Source: Heterodontus francisci
Lineage: Eukaryota
Assembly: GCF_036365525.1 (NCBI RefSeq)
Contig: NC_090396.1
Span: 28,434,283 to 28,498,282 of the forward strand
Length of the DNA stretch: 64,000 nucleotides
Direction of reading: 5' to 3'
Part shown: positions 15,201 through 63,485 of the stretch, piece after piece
How positions within the stretch are numbered: the stretch's first letter is position 1
How the letters are laid out: every line of letters begins with the position of its first letter
The notes under the pieces: generated by a model
Told to the model about the DNA's origin: nothing
The model's input: the letters and a program-made list of their open reading frames with translations, nothing else
The model's database searches: none
Made by a program: the position numbers and the translations under genes

Positions 15201-18200
15201 CTTCCCAATCAAAACTTGCAATTCCCTCATAGCTCCGACCCAGATGTGGGTGCCCTGAAGCTTGAACATACAACTGTCAACATTGCAATGTAGGCAACAA
15301 GCTGCAACAACTATTAGTGCCACCTGATGCTGATAGCTAGAATTGCTATGAAAATACTATGAAGTGTAATATCATAACACAATGTGGATTCTAACAGCAA
15401 TACAAGTTCAGTAAGGCACCCCTTTAATCAGCTTATTCCTGAACTGCATTTTAAATGATGACATCTTCAACTGTTTTACTGAATTCATATTAATGACTCT
15501 ATGACTCTATGCAGAGTTTAACAGCTCAGAAGGATGCCATTCGGCCCATTGACAGCATGCCGCTCTCCACGGAGCTATGCAGTCAGTCTCACTCCCCGAT
15601 AGAGTCACAGAGATATAATATAAATCAAAAGCAAACAAATTATGTAGTTAACCTTCACTACAATAGCTACTTGGGAATGTACTGTTCACTGTGCTAGAGT
15701 GAGGTAAACAATAGAATGAGGACACACTAAAAAATGGTTTTTCGAGGGAAGTACTCCTTTTTTTTTATTCTTTCATGGGAATGTGAACATCGCTGGCAGG
15801 CCAGCATTTGTTGCCATCCTTAATTGCCCTTGCGAAGGTGGTGGTGAGCTGCCTTCTTGAACCACTGCAGTCCATTTGGTGTAGGTACACCCACAGTGCT
15901 GTTTGGAAGAGAGTTCTAGGATTTTGACCCAGTGGCAGTGAAGGAACAGCGATTTAGGATGATGTCCTACTTGGAGGGGAACTTGCAGATAGTAGTATTC
16001 CCATATGTCTGCTGCCCTTGTCCTTCTATATGCTAGGCGTTGCAGATTTGGAAGGTGCTGTCGAAGGAGGCTTGGCAAGTTGCTGTAGTGCATCTTGTAG
16101 ATGGTACACACTGCTGCTGCTGTGCGCCGGTGGTGAAGGGAGTGAATGTTTAAGGTGGTGGATGGGATGCCGATCAAGTGGGCTGCTTTGTCTTGGATGG
16201 CGTCAAGCTTCTTGATTGTTGTTGGAGCTGCACTCATCCAGGCAAGTGGAGAATATTCCATCACACTCCTGACTTATGCCTTGTAGATGGTGGACAGGCT
16301 TTGGGGAGTCAGGAGATGAGTTACTCGCTGCAGAATTCCCAGCCTCTGACCTGCTTTTGTAGCAATAATACTTTTATGGCTGGTCCAGTTCAGTTTCTGG
16401 TCAATGGCAACCCCAGGATGTTGATGGCAGGGGATTCAGTGATGATAATGTTGTTGACTGTTAAGGGGAGATAGACAGACTCTCTCTTGTTGGAGATGGT
16501 CATTGCCTGGCACTTGTGTGGCACGAATGTAACTTGCCACTTATCAGCCCAGGCCTGAATGTTGTCCAGGTTTTACTGCATGTGAACATGGACTGCTTCA
16601 GTATCTGAGGAGTCACGACTAGCACTGAAAACTGTGCAATCATCAGTGAACATCCCCACTTCTGAGCTTATGATGGAGGGAAGGTTATTGATGAAGCAGC
16701 TCAAGATGGTTGGGCCTAGGACACTACCCTGAGAAATTCCTGCAGCGATGTCCTGGGGCTTGGATGTTTGGTCTCTAACAACCATAACCATCATCCTTTG
16801 TACTAGGTATGACTCCAACCCGTGGAGAGTTTCCCCTGATTCCCATTGACTTCAGTTTTGCTAGGATGTTGATGCCATACTCGGTCAAATGCGGCCTTGA
16901 TGTCAAGTGCAGTCACTCTCACATCACCTCTGGAGTTCAGCTCTTTTGTTCAGGTTGGACCAAGGCTGTAATGAGGTCTGGAGCCATGTGGTCCTGGCGG
17001 AACCCAAAGTGAACACTGGTGAGCAGGTTATTGCTGTGTAAGTGCCGCTTGGCTGCGCTGTCGACACTTTCCACTGTCACCATCACTTGAGGCTCAACGT
17101 TCCCTTATTTAGCCTTCAGAAGACCTGCTGCTCAATGTTTCTCTAGACCTCCATTCACATCCCCCCAACAGAGACACAGTGGGAGAGAATGTGGCCTTCA
17201 AGAAAAAGTTATGAAGAACCCTGTACTACAAGACAGAGGGGAATGCACCAAAATATCACCCTGTATAAACTCCTGTGAACTATACTATTATTCATAGATC
17301 TACACTGTAGCAGTGTAAACCTGAAATGGTATTTTAATGTTAGTTCACACATGAAAGACACATTTAAATCTATCCCATATCCCATTGATGCACTACAGAT
17401 CAGTTAGTTTTTAAGTTATATCAATTTTAACAGCAACCCCTCTGTATGTTTTCTGGTGCATATTTTCAATCACCACGCACAGCATCCGTTGCTGAAATTT
17501 TTACCTATTTCATCTACGACAGCAATCATTTTTTCCAGTTCTTCAGGACAGATGTCTGGACAGTGTGTGAACCCAAAATAAATCAAGACCCACTGTCCAT
17601 GGTAGTCTTTGTCCGTCTTGGGCTGTCGTGTATGATCAATGAGTGAAAAGGGTCCTCCAAGTGCTGCCTTTCCAATACTTCGGGTCCGCTCCTTCTCAAT
17701 CTCTAAACAAAAGTCAATTAAAAAAAAAGATTGACACCATATCAGACAAGCACACCATGTATATCCCACAGCTTTAAACAAATTTTTAGGAATTGTTTTC
17801 TATGCTCTCAAATATACATACACATATGTATCTCCATTATAGATCTCAAAATAATGTATGTTGGGAACAAATGCACTTATTAGAAAACAGAACACTGACA
17901 TTGTAGGTGATCTTCAGTACATGTCAACCATTCTGTTCACCTTTTGTCAAATATCTTCTACACAAAACAAAAACTGATGCTAATAAGTGTGACAAGGAGC
18001 AGTCGCAGAGGCAATTTGACACTCTAAGACAAGTAGAAAACAAAGTGAAGCTTTATAAGTTGTGTGTGCTTAGGTCTCCCACATTGTCATGAATAGAACT
18101 TCTGTAGATGGGAAGCATTTCCCTGCCAGGAGGGAGGGAGGCCCAGCCCAGTTCCTCTGGGTAGTGTCCTAGGCCCAACCATCTTCAGCTGCTTCATCAA

Positions 18201-21200
18201 TGACCTTCCCTCCATCATAAGGTCAGAAGTGGGGATGTTCGCTGATGATTGCACAATGTTCAACACCATTCACGACTCCTCAGATACTGAAGCAGTCCAT
18301 GTCCACATGCAGCAAGACCTGGACAACATCCAGGCAAGGGGTGATAAGTGGTAAGTAACAATCGCGCCACACAAGTGCCAGGCATCTCCAACAAGAGAGA
18401 ATCTAACCATCACCCCTTGACGTTCAATGGCTTTACCATGGCCGAATCCCCCACTATCAACATCCTTAGGGTTACCGTTGATCAGACACTGAACTGGACC
18501 AGCCATATAAGTATTATGGTTACAAGAGCAGGTCAGAGGCCGGGAATTCTGCAGCGAGTAACTCACCTCCTGACTCCCCAATGTCGGTCCACCATCTACA
18601 AGGCACATGTCAGGAGTGTGATGGAATACTCTCCACTTGTCTGGATGGGTACAGCTCCAACAACATTCAAGAAGCTCGACACCATCCAAGACAAAGCAGC
18701 CCGCTTGACTGGCACCCCATTTACCACCTTCAACATCCACTCCCTCCACCACCGGCGCACAGTGGCAGCAGTATGTACCATATACAAGATGCACTGCTGC
18801 AATTCATAAAGGCTCCTTCGACAGCACCTTCCAAGCCCGTGACCTCTACCACCTAGAAGGACAAGGGCAGCAGACATATAGGAACACCACCACCTGCAAA
18901 CTCCCCTCCAAGCCACATATCATCCTGTCTTGGAACTATATCGCCGTTCCTTCACTGTCGCTGGATCAAAATCCTGGAACTCCCTTCCTAACCGCACTGT
19001 GGGTGTACCAACCCCACTGGACTGCAGTGATTCAAGAAGGCAGCTCACCACCACCTTCTCAAGGGCAATTAGGGATGGGCAATAAATGCTGGCCTAGCCA
19101 GCGACGCCCACATCCCACGAACGAATAAAATTAAACTATCACTCTCCACCTAGCATTCAATGGCTTCTGTGCAGACTTGAGTTCAGGTGGCTTCGTGGCT
19201 TCCCACCATCTCAGTGCCAGATGATGTATGGTGCAGGGAAACTACAAGGAGGCGTGGCCGCTAGGTGACGTATCCTGAAAATGCCAGTTTGTCCGCTGAA
19301 GATACCAAGCTCTAGCTCACCAGGAACTCTCTCAACCCCTCCACTGTCTCTAAATTGTCACAATGTTGGCCAACATCTAATACTGGATGAGCAGAAATTT
19401 CCTCCAACTAAATATTGGAAAGACCGAAGCGATTGTCTTTGGTCCCCACCACAAATTCCATTCCTCAGCCACCACCTCCATCCCTCTCCCTGGCAACCTT
19501 GGTGTCATACTTGACCCAAAGATGAGCAACTAACCACATGTCCACACCATCACTGAGACTGCCTATTCCCACCTCCGTAACATTGCCCGACTCCACACAT
19601 GCTTCAGCTCAACTGCTGCTGAAACCCTCATTCATGTCTTTGTTACCTCTGGACTCGATTGTTTCAACACATTCCAGATCGGTCTGACATTTTCCACCCT
19701 CTCTAAGCTTAAGTTCACCCAAAACTCTGCTGCTCATATCCTAACTCGCACCAGGTCCCATTCCCTGATCACCCCTTAGCTCACTGACCTCATTGGCTCC
19801 TGGAAAACAATGCCTTGATTTTAAAATTTTCAAATCACTCCATGGCTTGACCCTCCCCATCTCTGAATTCACCTCCAGCTGTCCAACCCCCCTGCAATTT
19901 GGCCCTTTTGCACACCCCAAATTTTAAATTGCTCCACCACTGGCAGCCAAGCCTTCAACTGCTGAGGCCCTAACCTCTGGAACTCCCTTCCTAAACCTCC
20001 CTATCTCTCTTTCTGCTGTTAAGACACTCCTTAAAATCTACCTCTTTGACCATGCTTTTGGTCATCTGCATTAATATCTCATGTGGCTCTGTGTCAGATT
20101 TTGTTAGATAATGCTCCTTGGGACCTGTGTTCCTGCTAAGCTGCACAGGTGCATGGTCACACAGTAGGTTGAAAGGTAGCACGCTGGCCTCATTCTGTGA
20201 GAAATAACCCATGTGCACGGCCGTGAAAATAAATTTAAAGGGACTGCGTACTGAAAAAACGGGCCGCAGAAAAGAACCAAACTTAAAGGAAGCATTGCTT
20301 CGGACTACAATGTTAAAGCGACAATATAAATGCAAGATGTTGTTGAGAATAATCATGGTAATTTTAAAGTGGCATATTAACCTGTAAATACAATATCCAT
20401 TCCTGTATTTTACTGGTATGCACTGACTCAAACAGTACCAAATGCTTCCTCCAAGCAGAAAGGATTCTATTGACCCTCCAGCACAAACAATAGTAAGTCT
20501 TTACAATAAACTGAAGAACAGACCATAATACAAAAGCAAAATACTGTGGAAACTGGAAATCTGGAGTGAACACAGAAAATGCTGGAAATACTCAGCAGGT
20601 CTGGCAGCATCTGTGGAGAGAGAAACAGAGTTAATGTTACAGGTCTGTGATCTTTCATCTGTTTCTCTCTCCACAGATGCTGCAGACCTGCTGAGTATAT
20701 CCAGCAATTTCTGTTTCTGTAAAAAGAACAGACTGTGTTTCTCTAGAAAGAAAGAAAAACGTGCATTTATGTTGTGCCTTTCACAACCACAGGACGTCCA
20801 AAGTGCTTTACAACCAATGAAGTACTTTTGAAGTGCAGTGTCTGTTGTAATGTGGGAAACACAGCAGCAAATTTGCACCCAGCAAACTCCCACAAGTAGT
20901 AATGTGATAACGACCCGATAATCTGCTTTAGTGATGTTAATCGAAGGATAAATATTGCCCAGAATGTCAGGCATAACTTCCCTGCTCTTCTTCGAAACAA
21001 TGCCATGGGATCTTCTACATCCAGGTGCCTCAGTTTTACATCTCATCCAAAAGACAGCAACCGCCAACAGTGCAGTAGAGGCATGCTACCTGACCCGAAC
21101 CCGACAGGGTTCAGGTCGGGTGGGGCCCATGTTCCGGGGCCAGCTTTCGGGCTTGGGTTGGGTCGGGCCGAGTCCAGGTCAAGTCGAGTCGGGTCGGGCC

Positions 21201-24200
21201 GGACACACACGGTAAGTGCTCTGCCGGTAAGTATTAAAACATTTTTTAAAAACTTACCTGAGCTGGGAGTCGGGACGAAATGGAGTCTGCGCAGTGAGAA
21301 AGTGACGTCACTATGACGTCAACGCGCATGCAATGCGGCTTCTTGCAGGTAGGATGTCAGGAAGGTAAGTAATGGGATGGTCGGGTCGGGTCGAGTAGTG
21401 GCGGGTTCGGGTCGGGTCGGGCTCGGGGCAAAATCAGAGGGACTCGGGCCAGGTCCGCTGTGGTTCAGTCGGGATCGGGTCAGGTTCTTTCTCCTGACCT
21501 AAAGCAGGCCTCTTTAGTGCAGCAATCACTCAGTGCTGCACTGGAGTCTCAGCCTTACTTTTGTGCTGAAATCCTGGAGCAGGGCTTGAATCCACAGAGG
21601 CAGGAGTGCTACCAGCTGAGCTACAGCTGACATTGCAATACCTTAATTTACAAATCAACTCACAGTTGAGCAGATTTGTGACTAAAGTGGTTATTTCACA
21701 ATTTGCTCCTCATACTGCTTTAAAACTTTGAAAAGTCCTTTAGATAGGAACATAGGAACAGGAGTAGGCCATTTTGCCCCTTGAGCCTGTTTTTGTTTTA
21801 TTCTTTCATGGAATGTGGGCATCACTAGCAAGGCCAGCATTTATTGCCCATCCCTAATTGCCCTTGAGAAGGTGGTGGTCAGCTGCCTTCTTGAGCCGCT
21901 GCAGTCCATGTGCAGTAGGTACACCCAAGATGCTGTTAGGAAGAGAGTTCCAGGATTTTGACCCAGCGATACTGAAGGAATGGCGATATAGTTCCAAGTC
22001 AGGATGGCGTGTGGCTTGGAGGGGAACTTGCAGGTGGTGGTGTTCCCATGCATTTGCTGTCCTTGTCCCTTTAGGTGGCAGAGGTCGTGGGTTTGGAAGG
22101 TGCTGTCTAAGGAGCCTTGGTGCGTTGCTGCAGTGCATCTTGTAGGTGGTACACACTGCTGCCACTGTGCATCGGTGGTGGAAGTATGAATGTTGTGGAT
22201 GGGATGCCAATCAAGCGGGCTGCTTTGTCCTGGATGATGTCGAGCTTCTTGAGTGTTGTTGGAGCTGCACCCATCCAGGCAAATGGAGAGTATTCCATCA
22301 CACTCCTGACTTGTGCCGTGTAGATGGTGGACAGGCTTTGGGGAGTCAGAAGGTGAGTGACTCACCGCAGGATTCCTAGCCTCTGACCTGTTCTTATAGC
22401 CACGGTATTTATATGACTTCTCCAGTTCAGTTTCTGGTCAATGGTAACCCCCAGGATGTTGATAGTGGGGGATTCAGTGAAGGTAATGCCATTGAATGTG
22501 AAGGGGAGATGGTTAGCTTCTCTCTTGTTGGAGATGGTCATTGCCTGGCACTTGTGTGGCACGAATGTTACTTGTCACTTATCAGCCCAAGCCTGGATAT
22601 TGTCGAGGTCTTGCTGCATTTCTACATGGACTGCTTCAGTATCTGAGGAGTTGCGAATGGTGCTGAACATGGTGGAATCATCAGCGAACATCCCCACTAC
22701 TGACCTTATGACTGAAGGAAGGTCATTGATGAAGCAGCTAAAGATGGTTGGACCTAGGACACTACCCTGAGGAACTCCTGCAGTGACGTTCTGGAGCTGA
22801 GATGATTGACCTCCAACAACCACAATCATCTTCCTTTGTGCTAGGTATGACTCCAACCAGCGGAGAGTTTTCCCCCTGATTCCCATTGACTTCAGTTTTG
22901 CTCGGGCTCCTTGATGCCATACTTGGTCAAATGCTGCCTTGATGTCAAGGGCAGTCACTCTCACCTCACCTCTTGAGTTCAGCTCTTTTGTCCATGTTTG
23001 AACCAAGGCTGTAATGAGGTCAGGAGCTGAGTGGCCCTGGCGGAACCCAAACTGAGCGTCACTGAGCAGGTTATTGCTAAGCAAATGCCACTTGATAGCA
23101 CTGTTGATGACACCTTCCATCACTTTACCGATGATTGAGACTACATTGATGGGGCAGTAATTTGCCAGGTTGGACTTGTCCTGCTTTTTGTGTACAGGAC
23201 ATACCTGGGCAATTTTCCACATTGCCGGGTAGATGTCAGTGTTGTAGCTGAACTCGAACAGCTTGGCTAAGGACGTGGCAAGTTCTGGAGCACAGGTCTT
23301 CAGTACTATTGCGGTAATATTGTCAGGACCCATAGCTTTTTCAGTATCCAGTGCCTTCAGTCATTTCTTGATATCACAAGGAGTGAGTCAAATTGGCTGA
23401 AGTCTGGCATCTGTGATGCTGGGGACTTCAGGAGGAGGTCGAGATGGATCATCAACTCGGCACTTCTGGCTGAAGATTGTTGCAAATGCTTCAAACTTAT
23501 CTGTTGCACTGATGTGCTGGCTCCCCCATCATTGAGGATGGGGATATTTGTGGAGCCACCTCCTCCAGTTAGTTGTTTAATTGTCCACCACCATTCACGG
23601 CTGGGCGTGGCAGGACTGCAGAGCATAGATCTGATCCGTTGCTTATGGGTTTGCTGAACTCTGTCTATCGCATTCTGTTTACGCAGTTTGACATGCAAGT
23701 AGTCCTGGGTTGTAGCTTCACCAGGTTGACACCTTATTTTGAGGTATGCCTGGTGCTGCTCCTGGCATGCCCTCCTGCACTCTTTATTGAACCAGGGTTG
23801 GTCTCCTGGCTTTGATGGTAATGGTAGAGTGGGGGATATGCTGGGCCATGAGGTTACAGATTGTGGTTGAATACAATTGTGCTGCTGCTGATGGCCCACA
23901 TCGCCTCATGAATGCCCAGTTTTGCATTGCTAAATCTGTTCGAAATCTATCCCATTTAGCATGGTGATAGTGCCACACAACACGATGGAGGGTCCTCAAT
24001 GTGAAGGCTGGACTTTGTCTCCATAAGGACTGTGCGGTGGTCACTCCTACCAATACTGTCATGGACAGATGCATCTGCAGCAGGCAGATTGGTGAGGACG
24101 AGGTCAAGTATTTTTTTCCCTCTTGTTGGTTCCGTCACCACCTGCCGCAGACCCAGTCTAGCAGCTGAGTTCTTTAGGACTCAGCCAGCTCAGTCAGTAG

Positions 24201-27200
24201 TGGTGCTACCGAGCCACTCTTGGTGATGGATATTGAAGTTACCCACCCAGAGTACATTCTGCACCCCTGCCACCCTCAGTGCTTCCTCCAAGTCATGTTC
24301 AACGTGTAGGAGTACTGAGTCATCAGCTGAGGGAGGGCGGTAGATGGTAATCAGCAGGAGGTTTCCTTGCCCATGTTTGACCTGATGCCACGAGACTTCA
24401 TGGGGTCTGGAGTCGATGTTGAGGACTCCCAGGGCAACTCCCTCCCAACTATATACCGCTATGCCACTGCCTCTGCTGGGTCTGTCCTGCCGGTGGGACA
24501 GGACGTACCCGGGGATGGTGATGGCAGCGGCTGGGACATTGTCTGTAAGGTATGATTCCGTGAGTATGACTATGTCAGGCTGTTGCTTGACTAGTCTGTG
24601 GGACCGGTCTCCCAACTTTGGCACAAGCCCACAGATGTTGGTAAGGAGGACTTTGCAGGGTCGACAGGGCTGGGTATGCCATTGTCGTTTTCGGTGCCTA
24701 GGTCGATGCCGGGTAGTCTGTCCGGTTTCATTCTGTTTTATTGACTTTGTAGCAGTTAGATACAACTGAATGTCTTGCCAGGCCATTTCAGAGGGCATTT
24801 AAGAGTCAACCACATTGCTGTGGATCTGGAGTCACATGTCGGCCAGACCAGGTAAGTATGGCAGATTTCCTTCCCTAAAGGACATTAATGAACCAGATGG
24901 GTTTTTACAACAATGGTTTCCTGGCCATCATTAGACTAGCTTTTAATTCCAGATTTATTAATTGAATGCAAATTTCACCTTCTGCTGTGGTGGGATTCGA
25001 ACCCATGTCTCCAGAGCAATACCCTGGGTCTCTGGGTTACTAGTCCAGTGACAATACCACTACGGTATCACCTCCCCCTGTTTTGCCATTCATTGAGATT
25101 ATGGCTGATCTGTGACCTAATTCTATATATCTGCCTTTCCCGTATATCCTTTAAGAAAAATCTATCAATCTCAGATTTAAAACTAGCAATTGATCTCCTA
25201 TCAATTGCTGTTTGTGGAAGAGATTCCAAACTTCTACCATCCTTTGCGTGCAGAAGTAGTTCTTAATTACACTCCTGAAAGGCCTGTCTCTAACTTTTGA
25301 GCTATGTCCCCTAGTCCTAGATTCCCCAAACAGTTGAAAGAGTTTCTCTCTATCTACCCTAACAGTTCACCTTAATAGCTTGAAAACTTTGATCAAATCA
25401 TCCCTTAACCTTGTAAATTCCATGGAATACAACAACATATATTTGTATAGCACCTTTGAAGTAATAAAACGTCCAAAGGCGCTTCACAGGAGCATTATAA
25501 AACAAAATATGACACCAAGCCACATAAGGAGATATTAGGTCAGATGACCAAAATCTTGGTCAAAGAGGTAGGTTTTAAGGAGCGTCTTAAAGGAGGAAAG
25601 AAGTGGAGAGGCGGAGAAGTGTAGGGAGGGAATTCTAGAGGCCTAGGCAGCTGAAGGCCTGGCCACCAATGGTGGAGCAATTAAAATCAGGGATGCTCAA
25701 GTGTCCAGAATCACAGAAGTGCAGATATCTCGGAAAGTTGTGGGGCTGGATTTTAAAATCAAGTTGTTGTTTGACCGGGAATAAACGTAGATCAGCAAGC
25801 ACAGGGGTGATGGGTGAATGGAACTTGGTGCAAGTTAAGACACAGGCAGCAGAGTTTTGGATGATCTCAAGTTTACAGAGGGTAAAATGTGGGAGACCAG
25901 CCAGGAGTGCAAACCTAGTTTTTGTAATCTCTCCTCATAACTTGACCCTTGGAGTCCAGGTATCATTCTGATAAATCTACACTGCACTCCCTCCAAGGCC
26001 AATACTTCCTTCCTGAGGGGTGGTGCTCAGAACTGAACACAGTACACCAGGTGTGGTCTAACTAGAACTTTTACCCTCTTGTATCCTAGTCCTTCAGATA
26101 TAAATCTTAGCATTCCATTAGCCTTTTTGATTATTTTCTCTGCCTGTCCATGACAGTTTAATGATCTATGCACATGGACCCCAAGTCTCTTTGGACCTCC
26201 ACTGTTTCTAGCTTTTCACCATTTTGAAAGTAGTCTGATCTATCCTTTGTAGGTCCAAAGTGATAAAAGTATGTTGTAAGCGAGACTTACTTTCTTCTTT
26301 TTCTTTCTTAAAGTATTTCATGACAGCCAACAGTGCTCCTCCTACAGCAAAAGTGATTGCTAAAGACTTCCATGTAACAGGCTACTAAGAAACAGAAAAC
26401 ATGTCTTAGATTTTAAAAAATAGGACTAAACAAACTATAAATAGTTGGCCAACTTTAAAATAATTCCAGTTTGATTTTGAACACCAGAGGCCTGAACATA
26501 GCTTGGAGCGTAAAAGTTATTTAGTAATGTTTTACTCAGAACCATCAGTTTGTACAATATTTTGAATTGTCACTGTTCAACTACAGTGTGTAACATTGTA
26601 AAGCAAAAGGATGTTAATGACCTGTCTTGTGCCTCACAGCAACATTTGCTCAATAGATTCTATGCAACAGATAAGAGTAAAACTGGTCCTTCCAAATAGC
26701 TAACTGCATTTGATTAAAAAAAGATTTGCATTTATATAGCACCTTTTACAACCTCGAGATGTCCTAAAGTGTATTCACTTTAGGAATGTAGTGAATGCAG
26801 CACTGCAGCCACACAGCTCCAGCGACCCGGGTTCGGTTCTGGGTACTGCCTGTGCGGAGTTTGCAAGTTCTCCCTGTGACCGCTTGGGTTTCCTCCGGGT
26901 GTTTCCTCCCACATGCCAAAGACTTCGGCTTGATAGGTAAATTGGCCATTGTAAAAAAATTGCTCCTAGTGTAGTTAGGTGGTAGGAGAATTGAGGGAAG
27001 GTGGGGATGTGAGAGGGAAAAAACGGGATTAATGTAGGATTAGTATAAATGGGTGGTTGATGGTCGGCGCGGACCTGTTGGGCCGAAGGGCCTGTTTCGG
27101 TGCTGTATCTCTCTATGATTCTATGACTCTAATTTGTGCACAACAAGCTCCCACAAACAGCAATGTACTAATGACCAGATAATCTGTTTTTGTGATGTTG

Positions 27201-30200
27201 ATTGAGGGATAAATATGGCCAGGACATGGGGATAACTTCCCTGTTCTTCTTTGAAATAGTGCCATAGGATCTTTTATGTCCACCTTACAGAGCAGACTGG
27301 ACCTCGGTCTAACATTTCATCCGAAAGACAGCACCTCTAACAGTGCAGGACTCCCTCAGTACTGCACTGGTGTGTCAGCCTAGATCTTGTGCTCAAGTCT
27401 CCAGAGTGAGACTTAATTAGTTCAAACATTTGATACAGTTACGCTCAAAGTACAGTAAGGTATGCCCAATCCTTAAAACAAAATGTGAGAGTAGATTTTA
27501 CTGTAGTTGGGCCTGGAGGAATATAGTGGAAAGTCGGGCAGGGAAGATTACATGCCTGTAAAGGAGTTCGGCTATGTAGCCACAGGAACAGAAAAATCTG
27601 TCCGATAATCTGGACAACTATTTGGCACAATCAACATTGCTATTTTATTCACCAAAATTAACCACATCCTCACTTACCCCACTCTTTTTAGTCCCACTGT
27701 TTGGTTTCTGTCCAGGTGGTGATGGAGGCATTGTACTGAAGGAGTGGAGATTGTGCATGGAGTATTTGGTAGACTTCCATATTGGGCAAAGGTCTTTACT
27801 GAACTGTACAAACATGAAAAGAAGAATGACCTTGCGATTAATGAGTACCTTTCACATACTCAAACCATTCTAAAGCACATTACAGCCAATTAATTACTTT
27901 TAAAGTGGAGTTATTGACATTTTGCACACAAACACGATTAACTAATTTGCGCTCGGCAAGATCACACAAATGAGCTAATGACTAGATATTCTGTTACTTT
28001 TAAAATGATGTTCGTTGAGGGATAAATATTGTCTAAGACACTAGGAGAACTCTTTGTTGAATAGGCCACAGGATCTTAAACATCCCCCTGAGCAGGCAGA
28101 CTAGGCCTTAGTTTATTGTCTCATCCAAGAGATGACACCTCTGACAATGCAGCACTCCCTCAGCAGAGCACTGGAGTCTCAGCCTAAATCTTGTGCTCAA
28201 GTCCTGGAGTAGTGCTTAAATCCACAAGCTTCTGAGTTAGAGGCAAGAGTGCTAAAGATTAAACACAAACCACAATGTTTACTTAAATATGCAAAATTTT
28301 AGCATGCAAATTCACATTACAAAAGAAAGATTTTTATTTTGCGTAGCCCTATACTAGCTGTAAACAGTTGGAGCCCCTGATTTATATGGTGGTCAGTCGT
28401 GAGTCATTCATATTGCCCATGGCATTAAACCTTGCCCCAATGAAGGTGCAGGAGAATAAATTAGAAACTACAGAAGCTTCAGCTAAATTCTCTGCTCCTG
28501 GAATGATTTTTGTTGGACTATTTTCATCTCAGTTTTCTACTCAATAACATCTTTGCATCATTTGTCATATTTCCTAGGTTGTAATTATATTTCACCACTG
28601 GTCTAAGACCAGTGCCCATGGAGTTCAATTGGCATGTCTCATGTTGTAGTGTGGGCTACTAATTGTACTCTGCCAGGCAAGGGAACAATTTTGTACACCT
28701 ATGCCTACAGGAAGCGCTCCAATCTCTGACTGACACTCTAGAAATATTAAAAAATACTTCACAGTGAGTGCTTTAGTTGCCTAAAAGGACCAAGAGACCA
28801 CCTGAACACCCTTTAAACTTCACTGCACACCACGATGGTGTTCGACTCCAAACCTTGCCCAGGCCAAGCACTGACCCTGCTGTCGTGTATTCTGGACCTG
28901 ACTCCAAAGTTATGCTACCACTTTCTCATCGCAGTTGCATTCCAAGAACACAAGAAATAGGAGTAGAAATAGACCATAGAAATAGACCATAAGCCCTTCG
29001 CGCCTGCTCCGCCATTCATTATGATCATGGTTGATCGTCCAACTCAGTAACCTGTTCCCGCTTTCGCCCCATACCCTTTGATCCCTTTAAACCCAAGAGC
29101 TATATCTAACTCCTTCTTGAAAACATACAATGTTTTGGCCTCAACTGCTTTCTGTGGTAGTGAATTCCACAGGCTCACCACTCTCTGGGTGAAGAAATTT
29201 CTCCTCATCTCAGTCCTGAATGGTTTACCCCGTATCGTTAGACTATGACCCCTGGTTCTGGACTCCCCCACCATCGGGAACATCCTTGTTCTACCCTGCA
29301 TCTACCCTGTCAAGTCCTGTTAGAATTTTATAGGTTTCTATGAGATCCCCCCTCACTCTTCTGAATTCCAGCGAATATAATCCTAACCGACTCAATCTCT
29401 CCTCATACGTCAGTCCCGCCATCCCAGGAATCAGTCTGGTAAACCCTCGCTGCACTCCCTCCAGAGCAAGAACATCCTTCCTCAGATAAGGAGACCAAAA
29501 CTGCACACAATATTCCAGGTGTGGCCTCACCAAGGTCCTGTATAATTGCAGCAAGACATCCCTGCTCCTGTACTCGAATCCTCTCGCTATGAAGGCCAAC
29601 ATACCATTTGTTTTTTTTACCACCTGTTGCACCTGCATGCTTACCTTCAGCAACTGGTGTATGAGAACACCCAGGTCTCGCTGCATATTCCCCTCTCTTA
29701 GTTTATAGCCGCTCAGATAATAATCTGCCTTCCTGTTTTTGTTACCAAAGTGGATAACCTCACATTTATCCACGTTATACTGCATCTGCCATGCATTTGC
29801 CCACTCACGCAACTTGTCCAAATCACCCTGAAGCCTCTCTGCATCCTCCTCACAACTCACCCTCCCACCCAGTTTTGTGTCATTTGCAAATTTAGAGATA
29901 TTACATTTAGTTCCCTCATCTAAATCATTAATATATATTGTGAATAGCTGGGGTCCTAGCACCGATCTCTACGGTACCCCACTAGTCACTGCCCCATCCC
30001 TGCGGTACTCCCCTAGTCACTGTCCGATCCCTGCGGTACCCCACTAGTCACTGCCCGATCCCTGCGGTACCCCCCTAGTCACTGCCCGATCCCTGCGGTA
30101 CCCCCCTAGTCACTGCCCGATCCCTGCGGTACTCCCCTAGTCACTGCCCTATCCCTGCGGTACCCCCCTAGTCACTGCCCGATCCCTGCGGTACCCCCCT

Positions 30201-31714
30201 AGTCACTGCCCGATCCCTGCGGTACCCCCCTAGTCACTGCCCGATCCCTGCGGTACCCCACTAGTCACTGTCCGATCCCTGCGGTACCCCACTAGTCACT
30301 GCCCCATCCCTGCGGTACCCCACTAGTCACTGCCCCATCCCTGCGGTACTCCCCTAGTCACTGCCCCATCCCTGCGGTACTCCCCTAGTCACTGCCCTAT
30401 CCCTGCGGTACCCCCTAGTCACTGCCCGATCCCTGCGGTACCCCCCTAGTCACTGCCCTATCCCTGCAGTACCCCCCTAGTCACTGCCCGATCCCTGCGG
30501 TACCCCCCTAGTCACTGTCCGATCCCTGCGGTACTCCCCTAGTCACTGCCCTATCCCTGCAGTACCCCCCTAGTCACTGCCCGATCCCTGCGGTACCCCC
30601 CTAGTCACTGCCCGATCCCTGCGGTACCCCACTAGTCACTGCCCAATCCCTGCGGTACTCCCCTAGTCACTGCCCCATCCCTGCGGTACCCCACTAGTCA
30701 CTGCCCAATCCCTGCGGTACTCCCCTAGTCACTGCCCAATCCCTGCGGTACTCCCCTAGTCACTGCCCCATCCCTGCGGTACCCCACTAGTCACTGCCCA
30801 ATCCCTGCGGTACCCCACTAGTCACTGCCTGTGACCATATGGCCCATTGAGCTTGCTCCGCCATTCAATACGATCATGGCTGATCTTGGGCTTCAATTCC
30901 ACTTTTCTGCTCGCTCCCATATCCCTTGATTCCCTGCGAGACCAAAAATCTATCTATCCCAGCCTTAAATGTAATCAATGATGGAGCATCCACAACCCTC
31001 TGGGGTAGAGAATTCCAAAGATTCACAACCCTTTGAGTGAAGTAATTTCTCCTCATCTCAGTCCTGAATGATTGACCCCTTATCCTGAGACTGTGTCCCC
31101 GTGTTCTAGATTCCCTGACCAGTGGGAACAATCTCTCAGCTTCTACCCTATCAAGCCAATATATTATATCATCCCCATTGATAATTAGTGGATTCACCTA
31201 GGAACAGCAGATTTCTAAGTGACTTTAGTAAAGACAAAACTGTGAACTTGTGATTGCCAATCATCCAGCCTTTGAATGACCTTTCTGGAAATTCCTGAAA
31301 TACATAAGCCAGACATAATAGATTACCATTATCAGTCCTTTTCCCATTCCTGTGCCTTGTGATGTGGCCATATTAGTTACTCAGGGGGATCAATCAATGC
31401 ACGTCAGCAACAGAGTTTCATAACTCACGTCATGATCCCATTCTATGCCTTGTTGTTGCTTTGCTGTGGGCAGCCTTTCTGAGATCCCCCTGTTCAGTGA
31501 CACTGCATGCTAAGTGTTTAGCGTTTCCTGGTCTGGTACTCACCACTGTGTTCGTGCACCGTGCGTTTGCTGCGATTAATCTCGGACGGTTGCATTGCCG
31601 TGCGGTGATTCTGCAGCAAAAAGAAGCCGCCCTGGCTGCTTCGCAGAAAACTTCCCAATTAAACCTTGTTGAAATAGCGTTCGTCCGTTTCCAGAGCTGC
31701 AGTAGCACCGCCAT
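6140..31714 (-). CDS. SCO1: SCO1, mitochondrial cytochrome c oxidase copper chaperone; join(31714-31544,27803-27678,26381-26291,17702-17505,13823-13731,12585-12470,6271-6140), 927 nt, 308 aa
   Basis: All seven exons have GT-AG boundaries and compatible phases. The product has an Arg-rich presequence, the TM helix [18 protein letters not shown], the FTHCPDICP CxxxC motif and the VDHT His ligand. Internal exon sizes 91/198/93/116 match the vertebrate SCO1 structure as I recall it. Confidence 0.95.
7703..8023 (-). mobile_element. tRNA-derived SINE, HE1/V-SINE type
   Basis: Minus strand GGCGGCACAGTGGTGCAGTGGTTAGCACTGCAGCCTCACAGCTCCAGGGACCCGGGTTCG (A/B boxes), CR1-like tail GGCCGAAGGGCCTG..GTGCTGTATCTC(TAAA)n; homologous to 14376-14678 and 26797-27130. 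Confidence 0.85.
8697..10699 (-). mobile_element. RTE-clade (BovB-like) LINE, 5'-truncated, with an uninterrupted RT and C-terminal ORF
   Basis: ORF 8765-10780 has [33 protein letters not shown] and C-terminal [17 protein letters not shown]. (GAAA)n tail; 9-bp TSD ATCAATATC at 8688-8696 and 10700-10708. Confidence 0.95.
11170..11945 (-). mobile_element. CR1 LINE 3' fragment
   Basis: ORFs 11296-11673 and 11736-11921 ([34 protein letters not shown]). Confidence 0.9.
12470..12585 (-). CDS. SCO1: SCO1 exon ([39 protein letters not shown]), 116 nt
   Basis: Acceptor ctctctag|AG, donor ATT|gtaagt; strong similarity to SCO1. Confidence 0.95.
13731..13823 (-). CDS. SCO1: SCO1 exon ([31 protein letters not shown]), 93 nt
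   Basis: Acceptor gttacag|AC, donor G|gtagg; contains the IDPxRD motif. Confidence 0.95.
14376..14678 (+). mobile_element. tRNA-derived SINE, HE1/V-SINE type
   Basis: GCAGTGGTTAGCACTGCAGCCTCACAGCTCCAGGGACCCGGGTTCGATTC ... GTGCTGTATCTCT followed by an A-rich tail. Confidence 0.85.
15765..17065 (-). mobile_element. 5'-truncated copy of the CR1/L2-group LINE family found full length at 21794-25076
   Basis: ORF fragments [18 protein letters not shown] and [27 protein letters not shown]; same 3' UTR as the full-length copy. Confidence 0.9.
17505..17702 (-). CDS. SCO1: SCO1 exon carrying CxxxC ([23 protein letters not shown]...[24 protein letters not shown]), 198 nt
   Basis: Acceptor tgtttag|AG, donor G|gtaaa; lies within ORF 17470-17781. 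Confidence 0.97.
18145..19130 (+). mobile_element. 5'-truncated copy of the same LINE family as 21794-25076
   Basis: [30 protein letters not shown]; 3' end GGGCAATTAGGGATGGGCAATAAATGCTGGCC...GAATAAAA. Confidence 0.9.
19420..20120 (+). mobile_element. L2 LINE 3' fragment
   Basis: Decayed [16 protein letters not shown]...QNSAAHILT...HWL...LWNSLP...FKTLLK motifs typical of the L2 ORF2 C-terminus. Confidence 0.75.
20535..20720. repeat. Inverted repeat of the Penelope-like terminal sequence
   Basis: GCTGGAAATACTCAGCAGGTCTGGCAGCATCTGTGGAGAGAGAAACAGA (~20581-20629) is followed by its near-reverse complement (~20658-20705). The same sequence ends the PLEs at 37710, 41208 and 46064. Confidence 0.8.
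20750..21632 (-). mobile_element. Deu-domain-type tRNA SINE (SacSINE1-like), interrupted by a hAT MITE
   Basis: tRNA-like head at ~21632-21580 on the minus strand; core GATAAATATTG...GCCATGGGATC...AAAGACAGCA; L2-like tail. Homologues at 26718-27415, 27825-28255, 41740-42158 and 50910-51260. Confidence 0.7.
21076..21514. mobile_element. hAT-type MITE with TCGGG subterminal repeats
   Basis: TIRs TAGAGGCATGCT / AGCAGGCCTCTT; 8-bp TSD CAGTGCAG (21068-21075) / TAGTGCAG (21515-21522); many TCGGGTCGGG repeats. Related copy at ~56694-57081. Confidence 0.8.
21794..25076 (-). mobile_element. Full-length ORF1-less LINE (CR1/L2 group): tRNA-derived head, then an APE endonuclease-RT ORF broken by a few frameshifts and stops
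   Basis: EN motifs [42 protein letters not shown] motifs [32 protein letters not shown]. 8-bp TSD CCTGTTTT at 21786-21793 and 25077-25084. Confidence 0.9.
24985..25076 (-). promoter_or_regulatory. tRNA-derived internal RNA Pol III promoter at the 5' end of the LINE
   Basis: Minus strand A-box-like TACCGTAGTGG (25067-25057) and perfect B box GGTTCGAATCC (25003-24993). Confidence 0.8.
26291..26381 (-). CDS. SCO1: SCO1 transmembrane exon ([30 protein letters not shown]), 91 nt
   Basis: Acceptor tcttagtag|CCT, donor A|gtaagt. Confidence 0.95.
26797..27130 (+). mobile_element. HE1/V-SINE-type SINE nested in a Deu-type SINE (26718-27415, minus)
   Basis: Homologous to 14376-14678; CTATGA-type tail; the host SINE resumes at ~27131. 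Confidence 0.8.
27678..27803 (-). CDS. SCO1: SCO1 coding exon 2 ([42 protein letters not shown]), 126 nt
   Basis: Acceptor ttcttcttttcatgtttgtacag|TTC, donor GGG|gtaagt; phase 0/0 and open; the S/P/K-rich segment precedes PVTW as in other SCO1 proteins. Confidence 0.8.
28979..29990 (-). mobile_element. Relatively young CR1 LINE 3' part
   Basis: ORFs 29291-29962 ([35 protein letters not shown]) and 29044-29301. Confidence 0.92.
29962..30829. repeat. 31-bp minisatellite, about 28 copies, derived from CR1 RT coding sequence
   Basis: Unit CCGATCCCTGCGGTACCCC(A/C)CTAGTCACTGC; TAGTCAC recurs every 31 nt (e.g. 30014, 30045). On the minus strand it encodes [10 protein letters not shown]. Confidence 0.95.
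30833..31155 (-). mobile_element. CR1 3' end hosting the 28979-30831 insertion
   Basis: ORF 30874-31197 ([16 protein letters not shown]...[13 protein letters not shown]); its tail continues at ~28945-28978; GACCATA is duplicated at both junctions. Confidence 0.8.
31544..31714 (-). CDS. SCO1: SCO1 first coding exon, mitochondrial targeting peptide (57 aa)
   Basis: Kozak gcaccATGG at 31714; [20 protein letters not shown]...ARCTNTV is R/A-rich and acid-poor; phase-0 donor GTG|gtgagt; locally CpG-rich. Confidence 0.8.
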
Positions 31715-31834: not shown

Positions 31835-32522
31835 TCTTTTCTTTTCTTTCATTTGGGCCTCCTTATCTCGAGAGACAATGGATACGCGCCTGGAGGTGGT
31901 CAGTGGTTTGTGGAGCAGCGCCTGGAGTGGCTATAAAGGCCAATTCTGGAGTGACAGGCTCTTCCACAGGTGCTGCAGAGAAATTTGTTTGTCGGGGCTG
32001 TTGCACAGTTGGCTCTCCCCTTGCGCCTCTGTCTTTTTTCCTGCCAACTACTAAGTCTCTTCGACTCGCCACAATTTAGCCCTGTCTTTATTGCTGCCCG
32101 CCAGCTCTGGCGAATGCTGGCAACTGACTCCCACGACTTGTGATCAATGTCACACGATTTCATGTCGCGTTTGCAGACGTCTTTATAGCGGAGACATGGA
32201 CGGCCGGTGGGTCTGATACCAGTGGCGAGCTCGCTGTACAATGTGTCTTTGGGGATCCTGCCATCTTCCATGCGGCTCACATGGCCAAGCCATCTCAAGC
32301 GCCGCTGACTCAGTAGTGTGTATAAGCTAGGGGTGTTGGCCGCTTCAAGGACTTCTGTGTTGGAGATATAGTCCTGCCACCTGATGCCAAGTATTCTCCG
32401 AAGGCAGCGAAGATGGAATGAATTGAGACGTCGCTCTTGGCTGGCATACATTGTCCAGGCCTCGCTGCCGTAGAGCAAGGTACTGAGGACACAGGCCTGA
32501 TACACTCGGACTTTTGTGTTCC
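31835..32522 (-). mobile_element. RTE/BovB-like LINE, short 3' copy
   Basis: Near-identical to 8697-9388; 11-bp TSD GCACAGCAAAT at 31824-31834 and 32523-32533. Confidence 0.95.
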
Positions 32523-33189
32523 GCACAGCAAATACACATGGAACAATATTCAAACAGCAACATTCTCCAGCTGGGTTGTTTTACTTTATTGTCCACATTA
32601 CAGCTTTAGTCAACACCAACTTGAAATTAAACACTAACACAGCGAACTAAAGTTGCATCCTATAAAACATTTGATAACATTGCTACATCGAGTAAATGGA
32701 ATTCCTAAATATATGCATTCGTTTTGCTATATATTGCACATATGAACTAATCACTGCATGCCCCACTATATATGTTCGAATTACAAAAATCGATCCCTAA
32801 AGGTATATTTATTTTAATCAGTGCTATTTCCACCATTTCTCGATTAGGAAACTAGGCAGATGGAGGGTCCATACGCCGATACATTTTGTAAATCTTTTTC
32901 CTTCTCAAAAGCAATACAAAATTAGGTTAAATTATCATTTCTTTTTAATAAACCGATCCGTATTTTTAAAAATTGTACCACAAATTACAATATTATTCAA
33001 CTGTATGAACATTGGCTGGTATCGAACCCAAAATGTCGAATATTTTCACAAAACTGGTACAGTTATTCCAATGAATTCCAATCATAGCCAGCTTTTTCCA
33101 CCTAAGGAAGGCCCTTGGAGCGTTGGGCTAATATGTGGGGATCTTGATAGTGGAAGACTTTCTGAGCCTTCAAAGAAACTTTAAAAGTG

Positions 33190-35311: not shown

Positions 35312-35839
35312 GTGAGTCAAGTGCGTCTGAGGCTGCTGCCGGCACTGGGTCGCTGGGAGCGGCTTCTCCTGCTGCTCAGAGGAGCTGGGATCAGGGCCCC
35401 ATAGACTGTGCATGTTAAGCTGCAGCATTAAATATGGAACTATGGTTGGGATATATGTATAAGTTAAATGGATCTGAATTACTAAGAGGGAATCAAGTTC
35501 AACTTCGCCGCTCCCGCATCACTGTTTAAAACCAGTTAACAAGATTGTTAATATATTTTTGTTGATTTTGGTTGGGGGGTAGGGTTCAGGCCACCAGAGA
35601 AACTCTCAGCGCATACTGCGTTCTTTAGCATCTACCAAAATGGGCAGAGAGAGTCAGGATTGTGCCTTTGTTTCTGGAGTATCCTTTGCTGTTGATGCAA
35701 ATTCCTTGAAATAAATCACAACTAATTCCTTCACCCAACAAGATAGATGTAGGGGGGGAAAGGAGACTGCAATTTTACAAACCAGGTTTACATTTTAGAA
35801 CTCTGCTTTTCTCTATCTTTTCTCCCCTGGTCTAGTCTC

Positions 35840-61384: not shown

Positions 61385-62424
61385 GTAATTTAAGGTTACA
61401 TCCATATACAGTGGTGTATCTTTATTTTTGGTTTCCAATATAGAAAAATAAATTTTGAGCCTCTAATAAATACTATTTTTTAATTCCCGAATGCATTGTT
61501 GAAAACACCAGTTTTCTTTTTTTAAGCAATGATGTTTCATGCATTTTTCTTAAGACTGGGCACGTCTTTCATAAAGGCATTGCCCTTTCTTAATTAATTC
61601 ACTGTCTGAAACTTCCTATTTTGGTTTAAATACCAGGAACAGGTTATCTTTCTGTATTCATTGTTCAGCCTCACAATTTCTGGCTCTGTGGTATTCTGTT
61701 AATAAAATGCATATCATGCACTATTTAGTAAAGTTATATTTAGGACATTAGTCTTTAAAGTGTTGTTAGACAATAACTCATTTAGACATCATAAATTGCA
61801 GGAGTAATACATAGAATAATGTATTAATTTTTGACAATAATTATGTAGGCAATAAATACTAATTTCCTAGGGAAACTTACCTATGAGAGAGTAGTTGCCT
61901 TCTTTGTTTGATTGTGTTGGTTAGATTTCTTTACTGTACCTCTAGGAATATAGAGGATAAAGCTGAACCACAGGGCATAAAGGAAAACTCCACTTTCAGT
62001 CACCATGATAAAAAAAAACTCTAATCTCTCTCATAGTGCTGTTTCTGCGCACTCAATAAGAAGTGGTATCGTAAATAGTAGATGGGAGCAAAAAGTTTCA
62101 AAAGGACAGATAGATTGAGTGAGTGGGCAAAAATGTGGTAGCTGGAGTTCAAGTGGGAAAGTGTGAGGTCATCCACTTTGGACCTAAGAAAGACAGATCA
62201 GAGTATTTTCTAAATAGGGAGAAGCTAGAAACTGCGGATGAGTAAGATTTAGGGGTTGAAGTACAAAAATCACTAAAAGCTAGTGGGCAGATAAAAAAGT
62301 AATTAAAAAGACCATTGGGATGTTGGGCTTTCTCTCAGGGCTGGAATATAAATGGGTGGAAGTTACATTACACATGTACAGACTTGGCTTTTATTTCCAT
62401 GAGTATAGGCGAAAGAGATGAATT

Positions 62425-63485
62425 CCAGAGGTGAGATGTGAGTGACTGCCCTTGATATCAAAGCAGCATTTGAGCGAGTATGGCATCAATGAGCTCTAGC
62501 AAAATTGAAGCCAATGGGAACCAGGAGAAAAAGTCTCCACTGGTTGGAATCATACCTAGTGCAAAGGAAGATGGTTGTGGTTGTTGGAGGACAATCATCT
62601 CAGCCCCAAGGCATCACTGCAGGAGTTCCTCAGGGTAGTGTCCTAGGCCCGAACGTCTTCAGCTGCTTCATCAATGACCTTTCTCCATCATAAGGTCAGA
62701 AGTGGGGATGTTCGCTGATGATTGCACAGTATCCAGTATCATTCACGACTCCTCAGATACTGAAGCAGTCCGTGCCATCATGCAGCAAGACCTGGATAAC
62801 ATTCAGCTTGGGCTGATAAATGACGAGTAACATTTGTGCCAGACAATTGCCAGGCAATGACCATCTCCAACAAGAGAGAATCTAACCATCTTCCCTTGAC
62901 ATTCAATGGGATTACCATCGCTCAATCCCCCACTATCACCATCCTGGGGGTTACCATTGACCAGAAACACAATTGGACCAGCCACATAAATACTGTGGCT
63001 ACAAGAGCAGGTCAGAGGCTGGAAATTCTGCAGTGAGTAACTCACCTCCGGACTTCTGAAAGCCTGTCCACCATTTACAAAGCACAAGTCAAGGGTGTGA
63101 TGGAATACTCTCCACTTGCCTGGATGGGTGCAGCTCCAACAACAGTCAAGAAACTCGACACCATCCAGGACAAAGCAACCCGCTTGATTGGCACCCCATT
63201 CACCGCCTTCAGCATTCAGTCACTTCTCCACTGGCACAAAGGGACAACAGAGTGTACCATATACAAGGTGCACTGCAGCAACTCACTGAGATTCCTATGA
63301 CAGCACCTTCCAAATCTGCAACCTCTGCCACCTAGAAGAACAAAGGCAGCGGATGCATGGGAGCGCCACCACCTGCAAGTTCCGCTTTAAGTCACACACC
63401 ATCCTGACTTGGAGCTATATTGCTGTTGCTTCACCGTCGCTGGATCAAAATCCTGGTACTCCCTCCCTAACAGCACTGTAGGTGT
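62425..63485 (+). mobile_element. Internal/3' fragment of the LINE family of 21794-25076
   Basis: [42 protein letters not shown]. Confidence 0.88.

Follow-up and report, generated by a model that had tools for sequence, protein, structure and literature searches.

Zenon elements, a lineage of long interspersed elements (LINEs), were described from five elasmobranchs by Stuart et al. 2026 (PMC13343379), whose main text presents them as devoid of open reading frame 1 (ORF1), ending in poly(A) tails and absent from repeat databases; the relevant part of a whale shark preprint merely names CR1-Zenon. A basic rule of retrotransposon classification opposes coding LINEs, transcribed by RNA polymerase II (Pol II), to non-coding short interspersed elements (SINEs), whose transcripts come from RNA polymerase III (Pol III). 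Here we describe a full-length copy of a Zenon-type LINE found in a 64,000-nucleotide stretch of Heterodontus francisci DNA (contig NC_090396.1, positions 28,434,283 to 28,498,282). This whole stretch is called the window; all coordinates refer to it, and features given in the form x..y lie on its minus strand unless marked (+). We consider it probable, from sequence comparisons, that this family of sharks and rays is an autonomous, ORF1-less LINE driven by an internal Pol III promoter derived from a tRNA. It may be an abundant coding element of sharks that mobilises itself from a SINE-type promoter and is made by a polymerase thought to produce non-coding RNA only.

A tRNA-headed coding unit and its family

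The copy occupies 21794..25076, differs by 6.4% from the majority sequence of its family (unit length 3289 nt) and is bounded by an 8-bp target-site duplication (TSD), with the 5' copy at 25077..25084 and the 3' copy, whose A's overlap the tail, at 21786..21793. It splits the end of a CR1 LINE into an upstream 3' fragment (25085..25432) and the downstream 3' terminus (21745..21785). Excision of the unit and one TSD leaves a continuous CR1 3' untranslated region (UTR), and 25 other CR1 ends span the site; head, ORF and tail therefore entered as a single piece, which bears out the single 3.28-kb insertion proposed in an initial annotation of this DNA. The TSD is real for the window copy but is not a family trait: among 38 full-length copies, duplications of at least 5 bp were observed in 3 against 1.3 expected, with none of 7 bp or longer, and the TSD was rejected as a family hallmark because it stands at chance level. 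The script used for the family missed the window copy's own TSD because the A-tail of this copy is interrupted.

At the 5' end of the unit, a tRNA-like head with a long variable arm (24981..25076) contains a Pol III A box at 25057..25067, about 10 nt from the 5' end, and a B box at 24993..25003, 53 nt past the A box; both lie exactly where they had been annotated. The tRNA likeness itself stands in part. ARAGORN calls tRNA-Thr(AGT) in the LINE copy L044 and in the SINE copy L115, but makes no call in the window or in the SINE copies L104 and L122, and the Rfam tRNA-clan match to the head is below threshold (E 0.28). The first bases of the copies are a G-run, with a weak acceptor stem downstream of it, and by eye the anticodon loop differs from species to species.

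A query with the head plus the start of the ORF gave 7429 candidates in the 6.0-Gb genome of the same species, of which 40 were scored. Both parts are present in all 39 other copies fetched, 20 of which are colinear from head to tail; these 20 and the window copy were aligned to give the 3289-nt unit, from whose majority they differ by a mean of 4.2%. Because this search selected for the join, an unbiased search was run with endonuclease DNA only (4358 candidates, 40 scored), and 29 of its 39 non-self matches were examined. Nineteen bear the whole head or a part of it and ten are truncated within the unit; of the nineteen, 14 begin no more than 15 nt from the unit's first base, and in the other five the head is partial, deleted, interrupted or inverted. 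Neither an ORF1 nor an alternative shared 5' end was seen among these 29 loci, and nothing common abuts the element in the upstream flanks of 25 of them, except at one duplicated locus. The leader, at 307 nt, is too short to hold an ORF1 before the coding frame, and A-rich tails are found in the 38 full-length copies. These results show that head and ORF recur as one unit and that the coding frame follows the head directly, both as initially proposed; the lack of ORF1 had also been regarded as unusual, which it is not, all Zenon elements being ORF1-less according to the main text of PMC13343379.

The unit's 5' kilobase was found in sequencing runs of at least five organisms. In the four other organisms examined coverage extends to every one of the 29 bins, and for three of them the contigs listed include some that bridge leader and ORF; a run guessed to be RNA spans the 29 bins, a coverage that cannot show transcription, and two metatranscriptome runs with shares of 0.17 and 0.07 carry no weight as evidence. 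Two much older relatives, 71-75% identical to the majority, were met along the way (L338:87-935 and L129:294-1320), and the first still links the leader body to the ORF and keeps the TAG and the 28-nt spacer considered below. Inverted 5' parts or inverted partial neighbours lie beside the head at L094:2420-2901 and in the flanks of L031, L052, L329, L336 and L343, which suggests twin-priming-like or tandem inverted insertions.

The coding part is a single frame of 975 codons at 21854..24777, with no upstream in-frame AUG, that encodes an endonuclease and reverse transcriptase (EN-RT). Its APE-type endonuclease domain lies at approximately 24090..24642 and its reverse transcriptase (RT) domain at approximately 22446..23186, as mapped from residues 47-230 (PF03372) and 532-778 (PF00078) of L044. 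In L044 the natural frame is stop-free over all 975 codons, so that the expectation of an intact ORF in other full-length copies holds for this copy, but for this one only among 24 that cover the frame; the window copy, far from intact, has 6 in-frame stops and 5 indels relative to the family frame. Private non-CpG substitutions, each seen once among 57 head-bearing copies, comprise 1105 nonsynonymous, 371 synonymous and 67 nonsense changes (neutral expectation 2.6). Non-CpG variants common to at least five of these copies comprise 28 nonsynonymous and 41 synonymous changes and no stops (shared versus private, Fisher p 5e-9), and purifying selection therefore acted on the frame during its linkage to the head, as the proposal of an EN-RT encoded on the head-bearing unit implied. 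CpG sites common to at least five copies lack this pattern, as recurrent decay predicts. The only relatives of the encoded protein in the PDB are L1 ORF2p and R2. Pieces of the ORF, at 75-85% identity, also occur within predicted proteins of three named sharks (P0021, P0094, P0097 and others), named as an aldo-keto reductase, a MyoD-family inhibitor and CWC25; these are annotation artefacts or exonised copies.

As to its lineage, the unit has the Zenon traits of no ORF1, a poly(A) tail and a single ORF with APE endonuclease and RT. It departs from canonical CR1, marked by an esterase ORF1 or by clustering with elements that have one, in the lack of any ORF1, in a poly(A) rather than microsatellite tail, in an RT only 32% identical to that of the genome's CR1 and in a separate branch: in a tree of 29 RTs, which included no named Zenon, it falls outside the genome's CR1 and RTE, in a clade of unnamed proteins supported at 100/99. 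We assign it to Zenon from its near identity, judged by eye, to the published elasmobranch Zenon 5' ends. In their first 400 letters, inspected by eye, all seven elasmobranch consensuses (five species) open with this head and contain no run of four T (T4), and six of the seven retain ATG-GCC-TAG; over the same length the two hagfish and one coelacanth Zenon consensuses lack the head, start differently and contain T4 or longer runs (T4+).

Oligo-T avoidance and the SINE partner

Pol III terminates where it meets at least four consecutive T. The sense strand of the 3289-nt unit has none, against 14 A4+, 13 C4+ and 8 G4+ runs; 14 of 21 individual copies are T4-free, and the absence of T4 has P 0.009 against mononucleotide shuffles. 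Within the ORF, TTT occurs 4 times, where synonymous shuffling predicts 15.0 and in 10000 rounds never gave so low a count, and AAA, CCC and GGG are at normal levels; TTT is the most depleted of the 64 trinucleotides, ahead of all CpG-containing ones. All four are in-frame Phe codons. Across codon boundaries TTT was used at none of 71 opportunities; for one CR1 and one RTE of the same genome the figures are 28 of 141 and 18 of 106.

The ratio of observed to expected TTT is 0.27 in this family. Controls from the same genome, whose labels were read from their proteins, gave 0.85-0.97 with 8-13 T4+ runs (three CR1 copies), 0.84-0.89 with 4-5 T4+ runs (three RTE copies of equal T content) and 1.09-1.15 (Penelope). 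Among 80 metagenome relatives, the 63 with a frame of at least 600 codons were used; their ratios span 0.77-1.38 and all have at least three T4 runs. No B-box match was found in these 63, whose 5' ends may be incomplete, and no tRNA was called in the 52 scanned. A search for older full-length LINEs returned copies 92-97% identical to the majority, and the test of older material was made on truncated pieces, which show no T4+ over 1874 nt. The first genomic T4 lies 4-545 nt beyond the tail in 24 of 25 copies. Only one site in the unit, position 1145, carries a recurrent T4 (11 of 57 copies), which we ascribe to post-insertion decay because the site is a CpG, and five internal AATAAA or ATTAAA sites are kept. 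This strand-specific avoidance of oligo-T fits Pol III read-through of the element.

The existence of SINE copies consisting of head and tail, suggested at the outset, was borne out. A natural join of unit positions 1-321 to 3222-3289 has 1866 candidates and was seen in 29 of 30 loci examined; in the window copy, the 3' tail and poly(A) remnant that include the portion fused to the leader lie at 21794..21866. The full-length SINE (20 loci, 386 nt, 2.1% from its own majority) is about 98% identical to the LINE's leader plus tail, and an older SINE subfamily (30 loci, 5.8%) has the identical join, which each of the four other organisms also shows in the form of loose ends. By eye, the young SINE and the young LINE have about 15 changes in common relative to the older SINE, on both sides of the join. 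Splicing is ruled out as the origin of the SINE, the join not lying at GT-AG and having an overlap of 1-2 nt. As the overlap is this short, a single ancient origin, after which parts were exchanged, is likelier than repeated identical deletions; deletion within the LINE and capture of a SINE front end by the LINE are both possible directions. In a comparison aimed at the named SINE body domains (CORE, V, Deu/Nin, Meta and UCON3), matches of six short motifs from body and tail to the hagfish SINE supplement did not exceed chance, five such motifs retrieved no paper from the literature, and the body motif had 0 matches in viral contigs.

Translation start, proposed mechanism and rival explanations

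The ORF had initially been given a start at 24798, with a second ATG at 24786. The latter opens a mini-frame, ATG-GCC-stop, at 24778..24786, directly upstream of the long frame. Among 65 readable copies, 52 have TAG as its stop and only two, the window copy included, have TGG in that place, and the proposed start exists only because of this private TGG. An AUG start at either position was ruled out by the family TAG and by the first ATG, which is missing from the majority of contigs in the four other organisms; the long frame has no Met before codon 284, which lies beyond the endonuclease (first motif at codon 47). The idea of a master lineage in which a sense codon replaces TAG was likewise rejected, the 6 CAG and 3 GAG copies being scattered on the tree. 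The T of this TAG changes oftener than most T sites (9/64).

In codons 6-12, none of the four most frequent variants changes the amino acid (two are at CpG), which suggests that coding begins near the TAG. A phase-setting spacer is 28 nt long in 68 of 69 copies, and the listings for the four other organisms contain no indel. By eye, the published consensuses of three species also have 28 nt, but those of the whale shark and of dogfish Zenon-1 have 24 and 27, where the TAG frame is closed by a TAA as well. If these consensuses hold, read-through is excluded as the general route, which makes internal entry or re-initiation the first choice and read-through the second. We therefore lean slightly towards an AUG-independent start, by internal entry or by re-initiation once the ATG-GCC-TAG mini-frame has been passed; read-through of its TAG is a less probable start mode, and a -1 frameshift out of the conserved ATG at 24731, which is not in frame, seems improbable. 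AUG-independent starts occur in R2 and in L1 ORF2.

The leader body common to LINE and SINE (24764..24980), with 3' 150 nt that are nearly invariant between species of sharks and a ray, is a candidate translation or packaging element. Leader folding is stronger than in shuffles (z -2.4), and the family leader's longest stretch of perfect complementarity (8 bp; not perfect in the window copy) connects two predicted loops, a body loop at 24858..24866 and positions 24981-24988, a candidate loop-loop pairing from folding prediction. Apparent compensatory change was not counted in its favour, since both changes between the old SINE and the young family are CpG-type transitions and possibly coincidence. 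The leaders of the window copy and L044 have no Rfam match to an internal ribosome entry site or to a hepatitis delta virus (HDV)-like ribozyme up to E 10.

Taken together, we propose that TFIIIC would bind the A and B boxes and that Pol III would start about 10 nt upstream of the A box. It would then proceed through 3.3 kb of a sense strand that is observed to be purged of oligo-T, and stop at the first genomic T-run beyond the tail, as Alu-type SINEs do. The resulting uncapped RNA, which lacks an AUG for the long frame, might be translated without scanning by means of the conserved structured leader. The EN-RT, with its observed domains and selected frame, would bind the 3' tail and carry out target-primed reverse transcription, the established mechanism of LINEs; insertion would occur mostly without a TSD, and the internal promoter would be regenerated in every full-length copy. 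The 386-nt SINE, which has the same leader and tail, would ride on this EN-RT and appears to have swapped parts with the LINE. Transcription of the LINE by Pol III is in our judgement likely. More tentatively, and with slightly less than even confidence, we suggest that Pol III has made the element as a 3.3-kb messenger ever since sharks and rays last shared an ancestor, and that it is translated independently of cap and AUG through an undescribed structured leader that doubles as the body of its SINE.

Several observations weigh against a Pol III-driven LINE. The assembled contigs covered reveal neither the start, the strand nor the level of transcription. The tRNA support is modest, with an ARAGORN call in two of the five copies tried and an Rfam match below threshold. 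The absence of T4 is non-significant against synonymous shuffles (expected 2.1, P 0.09) and dinucleotide shuffles (expected 1.6, P 0.17); the signal lies in TT and TTT, weaker than a canonical terminator, and another T-avoiding force is possible. The metagenome relatives used for comparison are T-richer (0.22-0.36 versus 0.20) and their contigs may miss 5' ends. A single frame-covering copy in 24 is stop-free, among copies at a mean of 4.2% from the majority, and translation of an uncapped 3.3-kb RNA that has 9 ATGs upstream and lacks an in-frame AUG would have to follow an unproven route. A tRNA-like sequence has moreover been noted in the LINE RTE-1_DAn, as related in PMC5786205, so that a tRNA-like LINE part need not be unique.

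An alternative is a Pol II LINE with a captured SINE front end as its 5' UTR, in which the boxes are passengers or serve the SINE only and T is avoided under another pressure such as U-rich decay, splicing or 3'-processing signals. LINEs are indeed taken as Pol II transcripts in the relevant part of PMC5786205; the strong-context ATG of six of the seven published consensuses, at least in their 5' portions, would suit a capped RNA with read-through or re-initiation, the missing T4 is non-significant on its own, and the boxes could be refreshed from the SINE, given the changes common to both. Yet three retroelement families of the same genome and 63 relatives have no TTT depletion, the internal AATAAA/ATTAAA sites are retained, not lost, and no other 5' end or promoter region appears in the 29 unbiased matches, and we consider this explanation unlikely. 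Much less probable still is that the tRNA-like fold is a processing signal at whose 5' edge host read-through transcripts are cut in an RNase P-like manner, a role equal to that of the HDV-like ribozymes in R2, RTE and Ingi. Other ORF1-less LINEs do free their 5' ends by self-cleaving ribozymes, according to the same part of PMC5786205, and both the ARAGORN calls in some copies and the leader's z of -2.4 agree with a fold; oligo-T avoidance is not predicted, however, the start at a G-run lies upstream of a weak acceptor stem and, by eye, the anticodon loop varies between species. Finally, the broken window copy and the missing in-frame AUG might be expected of a one-off chimera, or of a passenger with a dead ORF mobilised by another LINE, but thousands of candidates with the same join, the head in seven consensuses from five species, the mark of purifying selection in the shared variants and the stop-free natural frame of one copy largely refute this, and we give it hardly any credence.

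If the Pol III-driven LINE is real, a coding element with an internal Pol III promoter, its 2.9 kb of coding sequence reshaped to avoid terminators, would break the rule that separates LINEs from SINEs. It would amount to a protein-coding SINE and offer a natural long Pol III messenger for studying cap-independent, AUG-less initiation in a vertebrate. The SINE body would acquire a definable job, and the long-standing question of the function of a conserved SINE body a testable answer.

Neighbouring repeats and comparison with known systems

The window holds three further pieces of this LINE family, two 5'-truncated copies at 15767..17073 (86% to the majority) and 18150..19126 (+, 90%) and a fragment at 62412..63485 (+, 87%). 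At about 8705-10700 (minus strand) lies a very young RTE-type LINE copy, whose best 39 matches are about 99-100% identical; its family, used as a control for the oligo-T test, has frames of at least 1044 codons in 10 of 20 loci and near-identical 3' pieces at 31838-32523 and 40637-41083, and is probably active. A young CR1 subfamily (L255-L274 and L046:1899-4028) shows 98-99% identity between copies and a 985-codon frame in L274, and one young CR1 copy is inserted within a copy of the Zenon-type LINE. Two Penelope-type copies, with a frame of RT and a GIY-YIG-like part, occupy 35811-37708 and 46063-47890 (10677 candidates in the genome). At 29962-30829 a 31-bp unit is repeated 28 times in tandem (93% matches), and the array adjoins a CR1 RT fragment at 29071-30013. 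The region 20900-21500 has short CCCGA-type repeats at both ends and an array at 21379-21427, which we take to resemble the subterminal repeats of a non-autonomous DNA transposon. SINE or L2-type tails lie at 20500-20900 and at 25490-25970 (minus strand), and a second, unrelated tRNA-like head near 21630-21560.

Among described elements, the elasmobranch Zenon of PMC13343379 (CarCar, RhiTyp, ScyCan, HypSab and SquAca) are the same family: five of the seven entries are 3244-3314 long, and they have the same head, body and ORF start in their first 400 letters, no ORF1, poly(A), and APE and RT domains. The main text and preprint of that study contain no mention of tRNA, promoter or Pol III, its main text does not speak of a start codon, and the oligo-T avoidance, the missing AUG and the SINE partner are undescribed in it. 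The relevant portions of PMC7245038, PMC5499810, PMC11481361, PMC10294476 and PMC11121367 hold no match to the element, and a literature search, with subscription journals and repeat databases outside its reach, retrieved no description of a Pol III-driven LINE. The Zenon lineage is thus known, and the lack of ORF1 ordinary for it; what appears to be absent from the sources covered is a tRNA-type promoter on a selected coding element, the oligo-T purge, the lack of an AUG and a SINE that co-evolves with the LINE.

ORF1-less LINEs such as R2, with uncapped RNA and structured leaders, resemble the present LINE in their single ORF and, on the reading proposed here, in a 5' end that is processed or not made by Pol II. 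R2 is co-transcribed by Pol I and released by an HDV-like ribozyme, of which the present LINE has no Rfam match. RTE-1_DAn and elements related to it (Repbase, as cited in PMC5786205) are LINEs that hold a tRNA-like sequence, in a different clade. The lepidopteran Zenon and its Persaeus SIDE, as described in part of PMC6740152, resemble our pair in combining a single-ORF Zenon with a short, internally deleted partner, but Persaeus has no tRNA homology or Pol III promoter in that description. Similar in architecture are the tRNA-derived SINEs (SINE2) of the bipartite model (Kojima 2018, PMC5786205), which, in the part of that paper setting out the model, have the same order of tRNA head with boxes, body and LINE tail. 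The present LINE has such a head with A and B boxes, with the Rfam match below threshold; being short, non-coding and partner-dependent describes the 386-nt SINE and not the LINE, with its 3289 nt and selected frame of 975 codons. In the model the head joins a deleted LINE, the SINEs are non-coding and their LINEs belong to the RTE or Vingi clade, whereas here the LINE is a Zenon and the head stands on the full coding element.

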